From Gemmatimonadales bacterium (lineage in GTDB: Bacteria > Gemmatimonadota > Gemmatimonadetes > Gemmatimonadales > GWC2-71-9), in contig DASSTY010000343.1 in the NCBI GenBank assembly GCA_035707585.1, forward strand, positions 1 to 27,389: 27,389 nucleotides of DNA. The letters run 5' to 3'. The notes beneath the pieces were generated by a model. It made no database searches. It saw only the letters and a program-made list of their open reading frames with translations, and was not told where the DNA came from. Below are positions 23,671 to 26,087 of this stretch, piece after piece (the stretch's first letter is position 1; every line of letters starts with the position of its first letter). The translations under genes and the position numbers were made by a program.

Positions 23671-23707
23671 GCGTAGGGGCGGGTCTCCGAGCCGACCCTG
23701 AGTGCCG

Positions 23708-23713
23708 TATATT
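23708..23713 (+). promoter_or_regulatory. -10 hexamer for a possibly leaderless transcript
   Basis: TATATT, 6 nt, ATG(23720); no Shine-Dalgarno. Confidence 0.45.
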
Positions 23714-23719
23714 TCCAGA

Positions 23720-24799
23720 ATGCCCTCCCTCTCCCGATTCGCCCTGGTCTGCGCCGTTGCTGCGGCTGCGGGATGCAGCGAACCGCGCCATCCGCCCACC
23801 ATCATGCTGAACCGCCCCGGCGACACGGTCATCACCGCCTTCGTCGAGGTGCCGGAGGCGGCCTGGATCGGCGATCAGCGATGGGCGGTGGTGGCGCCGT
23901 CGGATTCAACAGTGGCGGTGGTGGATTTCAAGACCCGGAAGTTCGCTCCGTTCGCCGCTGCGAAAGCGGCCGAGCTCAGCCGCCCGTTTTCGATCTTTAC
24001 GGTGCGGGGCGATACGGTGTACGTGGGCGACTGGGCCCGCCGCCGGATCACGGTGTGGACCGCCGGAGGTCAACTGGTCGACTCGGTTCCCGCACCAGAC
24101 CTGACCCGCGGTACTCTCCCCGTTGCGCGCGATGCGTCGGGCCGCTGGTACGCCGAGCGGCCGCCGGCTCCTAAGCCGCGGGGTGCGGCGAATCGCGATT
24201 CGACAGTGGTGCTGCGGCTCAGTAACGATCTCCAGCAGGCCGATACCGTCGCCGCGCTGGCCCCGCTCGATGTGGTGTCGGTGCAGGGTGAGCAGGGGAA
24301 TCGGCTGGAGCGCCGAGTCTTCAGCGGCAACGACGTGTGGGGCGCACTGCCTGACGGGACGGTCTGGCTGGCCCGGGTCAATGCCAACCGGGTCCTCTGG
24401 ATCGCACCGGACGGGTCGGTCACCCGAGGCGAAGCGCTTCCCGATCGGGTACTCCAGGTAACGGCGGAGGATCGCGAGCTCTTTGCGCAGCGCTTCCCGC
24501 CGGAACTCCGCAGCAACGCCCAGCAGCTTCCCTTTGCGATTGTGAAGCCGCCGTTCGTGCGCGGATTCACCGATCCGGACGGCAATGTCTGGCTGGAAAA
24601 GAGCCGTTCGATCGTAGACACGGTGCAGTCGTATCAGCAGGTCGACCGCAAGGGCCAGCTGGTCCGCGAACTCCAGCTCCCCGGCTGGGGGAAGATCCTC
24701 GGCGTCGCCAACGGCCGCGCCCTCGTCGCCGAGAATTTCAAGGACGGCGTGCGTCTGCTGCAGGTCTCGATTCCGCCGGTGGATAGCCTGTCGCGATAG
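23720..24799 (+). CDS. Beta-propeller-like lipoprotein
   Basis: Lipobox AAAGC; blade-like segments (DTVYVGDW.RRRITVW...G, WGALPDGTVWLAR, DPDGNVWLE, VDRKGQLV). Confidence 0.72.
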   Translation: MPSLSRFALVCAVAAAAGCSEPRHPPTIMLNRPGDTVITAFVEVPEAAWIGDQRWAVVAPSDSTVAVVDFKTRKFAPFAAAKAAELSRPFSIFTVRGDTVYVGDWARRRITVWTAGGQLVDSVPAPDLTRGTLPVARDASGRWYAERPPAPKPRGAANRDSTVVLRLSNDLQQADTVAALAPLDVVSVQGEQGNRLERRVFSGNDVWGALPDGTVWLARVNANRVLWIAPDGSVTRGEALPDRVLQVTAEDRELFAQRFPPELRSNAQQLPFAIVKPPFVRGFTDPDGNVWLEKSRSIVDTVQSYQQVDRKGQLVRELQLPGWGKILGVANGRALVAENFKDGVRLLQVSIPPVDSLSR

Positions 24800-24811
24800 C
24801 GGCGTGCGCGT

Positions 24812-24855
24812 GTCATTGCGAGGAGGCGGCGGAGCCGCCGACGAAGCAATCCCGT
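24812..24855 (+). repeat. CGTC-type REP palindrome, copy A
   Basis: GTCATTGCGAGGAGGCGGCGGAGCCGCCGACGAAGCAATCCCGT; inner stem GGCGGC/GCCGCC, outer stem ATTGC/GCAAT. Confidence 0.9.
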
Positions 24856-24902
24856 AACGCGTGGTACGGGGCAACATCGCCGGGAAGCTCCGACCGGCGG
24901 CG

Positions 24903-24942
24903 ACGGGATTGCGTCGTCGGCTTTCGGCGTTCTCGCAATAAC
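24903..24942 (-). repeat. CGTC-type REP palindrome, degenerate copy B (inverted relative to A)
   Basis: Reverse complement GTTATTGCGAGAACGCCGAAAGCCGACGACGCAATCCCGT. Confidence 0.85.
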
Positions 24943-25035
24943 AGAGCGCGTTCTTAGGGGATGGCTGGCGGGAATCCGCGCCGGCGCAGGGAAAGTCGAT
25001 GGGCAGATTGCCGGTCCCCTGGCCGGAGTCGCCCA

Positions 25036-25323
25036 ATGCAACAGTACTATGTCTATCTGCTTACCAATCCACGCCACAATGTATTGTACACTGGTGTAAC
25101 TCGGGACCTCGTGCGGCGGGTCTGGCAGCATCGGAATCATGTGCATCCCGGCTTCACCAGCCGATACAACGTCACCAAACTGGTCTGGTTCGAGGTTCAT
25201 ACCGATATCAGGGTAGCGATCGCCCGTGAGAAACAGATCAAGGCGGGGCCGCGGCGAAGGAAGCTGGCACTGATCGCCGGAGCCAATCCTGAGTGGCGGG
25301 ATCTTGCTGAAGACTTGGGGTGA
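25036..25323 (+). CDS. Stand-alone GIY-YIG nuclease (COG2827/YhbQ-like), 95 aa
   Basis: YYVYLL...LYTGVT.DL.RRVWQH, GFT.RY.V.KLVWFE, AIAREKQIK and NPEWRDL; catalytic Tyr/Arg/His/Glu positions present; GGAG RBS 7 nt before ATG 25036. Confidence 0.93.
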   Translation: MQQYYVYLLTNPRHNVLYTGVTRDLVRRVWQHRNHVHPGFTSRYNVTKLVWFEVHTDIRVAIAREKQIKAGPRRRKLALIAGANPEWRDLAEDLG

Positions 25324-25339
25324 TTCCGGCGCATGCGTC

Positions 25340-25383
25340 ACGGGATTGCTTCGTCGGCGGCTCCGCCGCCTCCTCGCAATGAC
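25340..25383 (-). repeat. CGTC-type REP palindrome, copy C (exact reverse complement of A)
   Basis: 44/44 identity to A in inverted orientation, extending to about 52 bp with 2 mismatches; outer end reads CGTCATTGCGAG on the minus strand. Confidence 0.9.
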
Positions 25384-25385
25384 GG

Positions 25386-26087
25386 CTAGGGCGCCGACTC
25401 GGGCGGCTTGCGGTCGGTGGCGCGGCGGTCGCGGCGCTGGCCCGATTCGTACCAGCGGCGGGTGATTTCGCCGGCCAGCTCGCGGTTGCCCAGGCCGAAT
25501 GCCAATCCTACGGCCAGCGCTACGGCGCCGAGTATCAGGGTGAAGGCGGCGGTGACGATTTCTTCGGCGACGCCGAGCTGCTGCAGCGCCATGAAGAGCG
25601 AGATCACCACCACTACCGCCTTGGCGATCTTGGCGACGGTCGGCACACCCGGCACCGTGCCCGCCGATGCCAGGATCAGCCCGCGCACGAATTCGCCCAG
25701 CACGATGCCCAGAATCACGATCAGGATCGCCGCGATGAGCGTCGGGATGAACGCCAGCATGGCGCCGAACATCTGATTGACGCTTTCCAGCCCGAGCGCG
25801 GTGCTGGCCAGCAGGATCACCACCAGCATCACCAGCCAGAAGATCAGTTTGGCGGTAGTGCGTACGGTATCGAGCCGCGAGCCGGTGCGGCCCACCACTT
25901 CATCGAGCCCGCCGGCGGCCGCCATCCGATCCACATGCAGCCGCTTGAGGGTATCGTCCACCCAGCGCTGGACGTAGCGTGCCAGGAAGTAGCCGGTGAT
26001 CAGGATCAGCGCCGCGCCGATCAGGGCGGGGAGAAACGCGCCGATCTCTTCGGCTCCCTGCAGGAGACGATCCCAGAGCTCATTCAC
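25386..26087 (-). CDS. Conserved TM-helix repeat protein (CmpX/MscS N-terminal-like)
   Basis: FLPALIGAALILITGYFLAR and FIPTLIAAILIVILG repeat, LQQLGVAEEIV..AF...LGAVALAVGLAFGLG.RE.A; no obvious MscS beta-domain. Confidence 0.8.
   Translation of the reverse strand: MNELWDRLLQGAEEIGAFLPALIGAALILITGYFLARYVQRWVDDTLKRLHVDRMAAAGGLDEVVGRTGSRLDTVRTTAKLIFWLVMLVVILLASTALGLESVNQMFGAMLAFIPTLIAAILIVILGIVLGEFVRGLILASAGTVPGVPTVAKIAKAVVVVISLFMALQQLGVAEEIVTAAFTLILGAVALAVGLAFGLGNRELAGEITRRWYESGQRRDRRATDRKPPESAP

Follow-up and report, generated by a model that had tools for sequence, protein, structure and literature searches.

An Ssn-like GIY-YIG nuclease gene bracketed by outward-facing CGTC/TGTC-tagged hairpin repeats in a soil Gemmatimonadales genome

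Introduction

RAYT enzymes form a covalent intermediate and act on GTAG-headed REPs, whereas GIY-YIG enzymes hydrolyse DNA with no covalent intermediate and cannot rejoin strands. The RAYT/REP systems were reportedly described by Nunvar in 2010 and by Ton-Hoang in 2012. Another class of repeats, the CGTC-tagged REPs, includes dRS3 of Neisseria and RPE-4 and RPE-6 of Rickettsia and frequently occurs as dimers; a dedicated enzyme was not reported for this class in 2013 (Di Nocera, De Gregorio and Rocco, 2013; PMC3733652).

The closest described nuclease is SsnA from Neisseria meningitidis (NMV_0044/NMB0047), a 94-residue protein with a single GIY-YIG domain (CDD cd10448, GIY-YIG_unchar_3), which binds and cuts single-stranded DNA beside the hairpin repeat NTS (CGTCATTCCCGCG..GCGGGAATC) but leaves the complementary strand, like RNA and duplex DNA, untouched (Chenal et al., 2025; PMC11893778). 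Cutting is governed by the three nucleotides located 5' of the palindrome and binding by the C located 3' of it (PMC11893778). Ssn homologues, identified by tblastn with an E value below 1e-10, are found across phyla and are bracketed by such repeats in the NTS-ssnA-NTS layout; 29 SRMs were curated, and four homologues cleave their own repeats (PMC11893778). The authors likened this layout to insertion sequences and to RAYT/REP, and also raised the hypothesis of mobilisation (PMC11893778). The one role demonstrated in Neisseria is modulation of transformation, not transposition, since SsnA lowers the integration of transforming DNA that bears NTS (PMC11893778).

Here, we analyse a locus for which it had been predicted, from the DNA sequence, that a small GIY-YIG protein is the cognate enzyme of CGTC-tagged hairpins. 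The original prediction also took this class of REPs to be devoid of a dedicated enzyme. The latter view goes back to the 2013 study (PMC3733652) and was overtaken in 2025, so that the system itself is not new (PMC11893778). The interpretation was largely right, in substance, and had already been published. The association of small GIY-YIG proteins with CGTC-type hairpins was an open problem from 2013 until 2025, and the locus described here would only be a further member of the system.

Results

The window is a stretch of 27,389 nucleotides, contig C343 of a soil Gemmatimonadales MAG (2.49 Mb in 451 contigs, 79% complete, 66.5% GC). The named relatives of genes from this MAG point to Gemmatimonadota as the probable phylum. 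As first noted, an ssn-like gene encoding a 95-residue single-domain GIY-YIG protein (25036-25323 including the stop codon, plus strand) is located between two 44-bp repeat units that are exact reverse complements, unit A on the plus strand (24812-24855) and unit C' on the minus strand (25340-25383). The heads of both units point outward. The tag is TGTCATT in the left unit and CGTCATT in the right unit, in which CGTC precedes the repeat on its own strand. The inverted repeat formed by A and C' extends to 52 nt at 96% (24812-24863 and 25332-25383). The plus-strand head is 224 bp upstream and the minus-strand head 60 bp downstream of the nuclease gene, both belonging to exact 44-nt copies. The third, degenerate copy announced upstream of the gene was also found (unit B', 24903-24942, minus strand); its head, GTTATTGCGAG, contains one mismatch. 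Unit B' is included in a 133-bp segment (24860-24992) that is replaced by GCG in contigs from three other metagenome runs.

The cassette occupies the entire gap between two convergent genes. Unit A begins 12 nt past the stop of the upstream gene (23702-24799, plus strand), which encodes an exported beta-propeller-like protein with a weak SGL match, and 2 nt separate unit C' from the stop codon of the downstream gene (25386-26087, minus strand), which encodes a membrane protein with mechanosensitive-channel transmembrane helices. The GC content dips to about 57% over the nuclease gene, as compared to about 66% for the genome. No target-site duplication was found at the ends of the cassette in the window sequence. 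An Rfam scan of positions 24600-25600 returned only a chance microRNA match (E value of 0.36), and the repeat corresponds to no described RNA family. A reading of the repeats as terminators was dropped because the promoter and terminator scan was empty and a terminator-like T-tract was lacking. The defence-system and phage readings were unsupported, the PADLOC and PHROGs searches being without matches.

Read in order, each repeat unit contains GTC followed by a 5-bp ATTGC stem, then an internal loop and an inner hairpin that is GC-rich and 6 bp long, and finally GCAAT with C after it. The predicted fold of a single unit was not better than that of shuffled sequences in this GC-rich context (z about -1). 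Together, units A and B' form a 131-bp palindromic doublet (24812-24942), the fold of which was considerably better than that of shuffled sequences (z of -4.9). The inner stem covaries across copies: a given paired position can be GC, CG, AT, or TA. It is these compensatory changes, and not the folding energy, that argue for a hairpin. The composite pattern read backwards, used as a control, had zero matches in 201 genomes of the phylum, indicating that the repeat is not a chance occurrence.

Counting the repeat genome-wide revealed nine units at four loci of this 79%-complete MAG, namely the cassette and three gene-less doublets of 94-133 bp with outward heads (C117:3118-3213, C200:4744-4837, and C353:944-1076). 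The unit at C353:944-987 is unit A with 1 mismatch, and the doublet at 24812-24942 is 82% identical to the gene-less doublet spanning C353:943-1077. Contig C200 also contains part of a second GIY-YIG gene, truncated by the end of the contig, with the variant head GTCATCGTGAG following it. Units of the GTCATTGCGAG-type repeat are 26-50 nt long (40-44 nt in the window). Classified by stem, the repeat subtypes were ATTGC, ATTCCCGC, ATTCCGG, and ATTCTGAG. A literature search with the repeat string returned unrelated primer lists only, and the string GTCATTGCGAG is absent from the main text of the study of CGTC-tagged REPs (Di Nocera, De Gregorio and Rocco, 2013; PMC3733652).

The sole Pfam family matched by the 95-residue protein was GIY-YIG (residues 3-70, E value of 4.7e-14). 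All positions at least 99% conserved among 84 homologues are retained (Y7, Y18, G20, T22, R28, H32, F40, E53, R64, E65, K66, R73, K76, and N84), including the catalytic set formed by the Tyr of GIY (Y7), the Tyr of YIG (Y18), the Arg (R28), and the metal-binding Glu (E65). Matches in NCBIfam were sub-threshold and limited to the GIY-YIG part of DEDD-exonuclease fusion proteins. Searching the PDB by sequence returned a marginal match to UPF0213 protein BH0048 (PDB 1zg2, E value of 0.06) and no solved Ssn structure.

Similarity to the Ssn family was assessed with NTS-flanked Burkholderiales proteins used as proxies, in place of N. meningitidis SsnA itself. The proxies came from a search of 401 Burkholderiales genomes for canonical NTS, of which 77 were positive; the unpublished genome G517 contributed one NTS match within these 77 of 401 and nothing else. 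The window protein is 48-54% identical (E values of 1e-25 to 1e-28) to homologues encoded by three NTS-rich Burkholderiales genomes, in which the genes are directly flanked by canonical NTS. One of the canonical NTS loci (L092) displays the same arrangement as the window, plus upstream and minus downstream. A Noviherbaspirillum homologue (58% identity) adjoins an NTS, and a Permianibacter homologue is flanked by the variant GTCATTCCGGA. The window protein used as a query detected no homologue in a genome containing 29 Neisseria-type uptake sequences and 43 NTS. In a protein tree based on 96 columns only, with unresolved deep forks, the NTS-flanked proteins formed a supported clade beside type-A proteins of Alphaproteobacteria.

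The published SRM pattern, HGTCWYN(0-2)YYVSBRHN(0-5)WNVSBRGN(0-2)RNCYNB, had zero matches in the window; among 80 homologous loci, a single one had a match at most 300 bp from the gene. The canonical NTS of loci L091-L093, used as a positive control, were detected by this regular expression. The pattern serves to search for repeats and does not define the family, and the window repeat keeps both the GTC before the palindrome and the C after it. On the basis of its sequence, the locus was filed as a member of the Ssn family with a repeat subtype that is missed by the published pattern. Recognition of the window repeat may differ, since this repeat exceeds NTS in length and includes an internal loop as well as a nested inner hairpin.

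To place the locus in a wider context, 225 relatives were collected by scanning species-representative genomes, and the best 80 of the 225 (52-70% identical) were analysed. The latter came from Chloroflexota, Gemmatimonadota, Thermodesulfobacteriota, Patescibacteria, Atribacterota, Planctomycetota, Bacteroidota, Bacillota, Pseudomonadota, and others, amounting to more than ten phyla. Of the 80 loci, 72 had the 11-mer head GTCATTGCGAG, with up to 1 mismatch, no more than 300 bp from the gene, and the density of heads was 6.3 per kb near the gene versus 0.32 per kb further away. The bracket (plus upstream and minus downstream) was found in 58 of the 74 type-A loci, with medians of 98 bp for the distance to the upstream plus head, 68 bp for the distance to the downstream minus head, and 442 bp for the cassette (n = 58). 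Those of the seemingly headless loci that were checked are also flanked by inverted repeats, the heads of which are variants. By comparison, the one example of a UPF0213-type GIY-YIG gene (L094, 34% identity) had no flanking repeats. Repeat types clustered on the 96-column protein tree, with 7 changes versus 10.8 in shuffles (0 of 200 shuffles as low), indicating that the repeat type follows nuclease phylogeny. This orientation-specific, cross-phylum association, combined with the biochemistry of homologues (PMC11893778), upholds the proposal that the GIY-YIG protein is the cognate partner of CGTC/GTCATT-tagged hairpins.

These data bear on the trivial explanation that ordinary terminator-like or REP hairpins gather in convergent gaps and that the gene lies among them by chance. 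The cassette does fill a convergent gap, and gene-less doublets follow genes elsewhere, as in genome G017. However, chance explains neither why 72 of 80 loci, drawn from more than ten phyla, have the same head in a fixed orientation no further than 300 bp from the gene, nor why one of only four repeat loci in a 2.49-Mb genome is the nuclease gene. The hairpins also lack a T-tract of the terminator kind, and the repeat type tracks the nuclease tree. The head association, its orientation, and the tracking of the tree effectively refute coincidence, to which we assign a negligible probability.

Co-occurrence was tallied by hand in 201 genomes of the phylum of the window, which are related and hence not independent, a close gene being defined by an E value of up to 1e-12. 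The repeat was present in 15 and absent from 20 of the 35 genomes harboring a close gene; it was present in 12 and absent from 154 of the 166 genomes with no close gene. Nine of the 12 genomes of the phylum containing at least 10 units have the gene. Repeat-rich genomes with no close gene include G055 (67 units), which has a weak GIY-YIG match only, and G209 (21 units), which has no GIY-YIG match. An Allosphingosinicella MAG contains 320 units, mostly in doublets of 26-nt and 32-nt units. The number of gene copies reaches five per genome, and the distribution of the gene is patchy and cross-phylum.

Two related genomes, G001 from the same genus and G003 from the same family, contain orthologues of both flanking genes in convergent orientation, separated by about 76 bp, and the gap between them contains neither the nuclease gene nor a repeat head. 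In this comparison, divergence of the gap and of the gene ends prevented the insertion point from being placed at the base level. In genome G017, a gene-less 83-bp doublet is located beside the orthologue of the downstream flanking gene. The cassette was inserted into the gap between convergent genes. Elsewhere, two Atribacterota MAGs are homologous over just 398 bp including the gene, the homology stopping within 3 nt of the head on either side, and two cassette copies in one Bacteroidota MAG share only 350 bp. Genome G001 harbors ten units plus two 415-bp gene-less palindromic elements that end in these units; no close nuclease gene was found in this genome, and the two elements contain no GIY-YIG remnant. 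Together, these sequence comparisons give good support to a cassette that moves, or moved until recently, as one unit; it behaves like an element transferred horizontally across phyla.

Allelic variation at the locus was sought in contigs from four metagenome runs. In runs X2, X6, and X7, contigs join position 24859 to position 24993 with GCG between, and depth in X7 is zero over 24888-24961. In this short form, about 94 bp separate unit A from the start codon, as is usual for homologous loci. The short form lacking the 133-bp segment is suggestive only, since the joints have short sides of 23-36 nt. No clean empty-site allele or excision product was detected in the contigs of the four runs. 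Several apparent skips in metagenome contigs proved to be cross-mapping from the other doublets of the host.

In a rival reading, which is that of the original prediction, the GIY-YIG protein is itself the analogue of RAYT: by nicking at hairpins, it would cause both the cassette and gene-less doublets to be copied or transposed, and would be the "transposase" of CGTC-tagged REPs. The architecture of the bracket resembles that of an insertion sequence, and the same site is free of the cassette in a genome of the same genus, although a target-site duplication is absent. The homology between genomes stops at the heads, and gene-less doublets of 83-415 bp have the same ends; however, inner stems frequently differ between the two ends, and only 29% of the loci have ends more alike than random pairs. 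Gene copies reach five per genome with patchy spread across phyla, and nine of the 12 genomes of the phylum with at least 10 units have the gene, although G055 and G209 are rich in repeats with no close gene. A hydrolytic GIY-YIG enzyme cannot rejoin strands, and mobility would need host repair or recombination; in addition, the four metagenome runs show no excision or empty-site alleles. The same hypothesis was raised by the authors of the Ssn study, and the role demonstrated in Neisseria is the modulation of transformation (PMC11893778). We regard a RAYT-like activity as a possible but tentative explanation. The original prediction was that the enzyme may disperse REPs or move itself as a REP-bounded cassette. 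The cassette is indeed both an insertion and a unit of homology, whereas catalysis of the movement by the nuclease is conjectural.

Discussion

Our analysis indicates that the locus is probably an Ssn-type cassette, in which the nuclease gene is bracketed by cognate, outward-facing, NTS/SRM-like hairpins with CGTC or TGTC tags. This assignment draws on the anatomy of the locus, the family membership of the protein by sequence, the cross-genome association, and the status of the cassette as an insertion, all of which were established above. Other observations run counter to it. The copy number is low, with nine units at four loci in a 79%-complete MAG. Gene and repeat are uncoupled in 20 gene-positive genomes that are devoid of this repeat type and in 12 repeat-positive genomes with no close gene. 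The window repeat fails the published SRM pattern, a single-unit hairpin is not energetically exceptional, and metagenome contigs contained neither an empty-site allele nor an excision product.

The cleavage chemistry and specificity of the window protein are expected, by analogy, to be those of its tested homologues. Based on homology with SsnA and three other tested homologues, the protein would bind the repeat only as a single-stranded folded hairpin. It would read the GTC located 5' of the ATTGC...GCAAT stem and the C located 3' of the stem, and would cut the GTC-reading strand a few nucleotides upstream of the repeat, sparing double-stranded DNA, RNA, and the complementary strand. With outward heads, one nick is predicted immediately beyond either end of the cassette, and the two would affect opposite strands. 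The extra unit B' makes the left end a REPIN-like doublet.

A role of the nuclease in spreading the repeats is one that we infer. Hairpin-ssn-hairpin might be a self-contained mobile element of about 360-700 bp, in which nicks introduced outside both ends by the nuclease trigger host-mediated copying of the cassette and of gene-less doublets; we put this forward tentatively, as a conceivable outcome that falls short of being probable. The Ssn-type nuclease may alternatively have been domesticated for a host function, cutting repeat-bearing incoming or exposed single-stranded DNA and controlling transformation or recombination, the bracket being an immobile relic. Such a function would be in line with the reduced integration of NTS-bearing transforming DNA in the presence of SsnA (PMC11893778), and the window gene is intact with all invariant residues kept. 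However, nine units are too few to mark much DNA, and the cassette-free site in the closest relative together with the foreign-looking GC content suggests a recent arrival. We consider domestication to be unlikely.

The GIY-YIG catalytic domain and the presence or absence of the cassette in relatives are also features of homing endonucleases of the I-TevI type, which would cut double-stranded DNA at empty sites and spread by double-strand-break repair. The window protein, limited to 95 residues, lacks a DNA-binding domain, and the gene is not in an intron, intein, or phage context, with no PHROG match. In addition, insertion sites vary between genomes, and the tested members of the Ssn family leave duplex DNA uncut (PMC11893778). 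We view this mode of spread as highly improbable; along with coincidence, it is effectively excluded. An Ssn-type cassette remains the preferred reading of the locus.

Three aspects of the locus extend the published description of the Ssn system. First, the repeat belongs to a very widespread subtype, GTCATTGCGAG...GAAGCAATC, which is present in more than ten phyla and goes undetected by the published search pattern. The published number of Ssn genes "without" a cognate repeat is therefore probably an overestimate. Second, the repeat subtype tracks the nuclease tree, thereby providing natural pairs for studying how a 95-residue protein reads a hairpin; these pairs also offer further specificities for single-strand DNA tools. 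Third, the cassette-free site in the same genus and the homology ending at the heads provide site-level evidence for insertion, which bears on the mobile-element hypothesis. If mobilisation by Ssn proteins were true, they would be the long-missing mobilising enzyme of CGTC-tagged REPs, the cassettes would be among the smallest autonomous mobile elements, and the mechanism would be unlike the strand-transfer chemistry of RAYT or IS200/IS605.

The locus can be compared to five known systems. With Ssn/NTS, it shares a single-domain GIY-YIG protein of about 94 residues, a bracket of outward-facing hairpins, and the dispersion of the same repeats in the genome. The frame of the repeat (GTCATT, stem, loop, stem, AATC) is also shared, with conservation of the GTC and of the 3' C. 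The window repeat differs by its ATTGC stem and by the internal loop and variable nested hairpin that come after this stem, and also in length, NTS being about 28 nt long; the host is an uncultured soil bacterium with a low repeat copy number. The features of the CGTC-tagged REPs, a short palindrome with a CGTC or TGTC tag at one end, dispersed and often in dimers, are all found in the window repeat, the difference being that a dedicated enzyme was not reported for them in 2013 (PMC3733652).

RAYT/REP systems (REPtrons) resemble the locus in having a small nuclease gene between recognised hairpins, doublets (REPINs or BIMEs), and recognition of a single-stranded hairpin. However, RAYT is an HUH Y1 (IS200/IS605-like) transposase, whereas the window protein consists of a hydrolytic GIY-YIG domain only, and REPs have GTAG or GTGG heads, whereas the window heads are TGTC or CGTC followed by ATT. 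Proteins of the UPF0213/YhbQ type, such as BH0048, are also stand-alone GIY-YIG domains of about 100 residues, but the window protein matches them marginally (E value of 0.06) and the example at L094 is repeat-free. Finally, I-TevI-type homing endonucleases have in common with the window protein the catalytic domain, and with the cassette a selfish-element lifestyle. They differ by a separate DNA-binding domain, by the cutting of duplex DNA, and by their location in introns and phage genomes, whereas the window gene is located in a chromosomal gap between convergent genes.

Strain variation and a second nuclease gene in the genome of the window

The cassette, in which the gene for a 95-residue GIY-YIG nuclease lies between two hairpin repeat units, appears to vary in length between strains. 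In contigs of three other metagenome runs (two from soil and one labelled gill), the 133-bp segment at positions 24860-24992 was replaced by GCG. This short form lacks the degenerate repeat unit B' (24903-24942, minus strand), suggesting a strain-level indel within the cassette that accounts for this additional unit. Near-identical DNA for the region 24300-25900 (77-85% of sampled words) was present in soil runs and in four public runs labelled gill metagenome, an odd habitat for a soil-type organism.

The same genome contains a second GIY-YIG gene, located outside the window on contig C200 (8189-8262), which is partial since it runs off the contig end. A repeat head of a different variant, GTCATCGTGAG, is found 14 nucleotides past the stop codon of this gene, which suggests the presence of a second nuclease/repeat pair.

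Repeats with and without a nuclease gene in other genomes

The same-genus relative G001 harbors two gene-less elements of 415 bp (C52:2853-3268 and C171:652-1063), in which a search for a GIY-YIG remnant was negative. Both are palindromic overall, as they align with each other in both orientations (75-76%), terminate in GTCATTGCGAG units, and contain a second short, GC-rich repeat in their interior. In an uncultured proteobacterium (L006:2360-2960), thirteen plus-strand heads form a regular tandem array (spacing of about 50 bp) directly upstream from the nuclease gene.

The sampled Burkholderiales genome G417 contains 43 copies of the canonical NTS and 29 copies of a Neisseria-type uptake 12-mer. 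No nuclease homologue was found in this genome with the nuclease of the window as the query; the gene is either missing or too diverged for this query. The Allosphingosinicella MAG G221, the genome of locus L061, harbors 320 repeat copies in 3.6 Mb, nearly all of them doublets comprising one 26-nucleotide and one 32-nucleotide unit and spanning about 85 bp. These repeats are a high-copy, REPIN-like population of the repeat subtype of the window, which the published SRM pattern fails to match.
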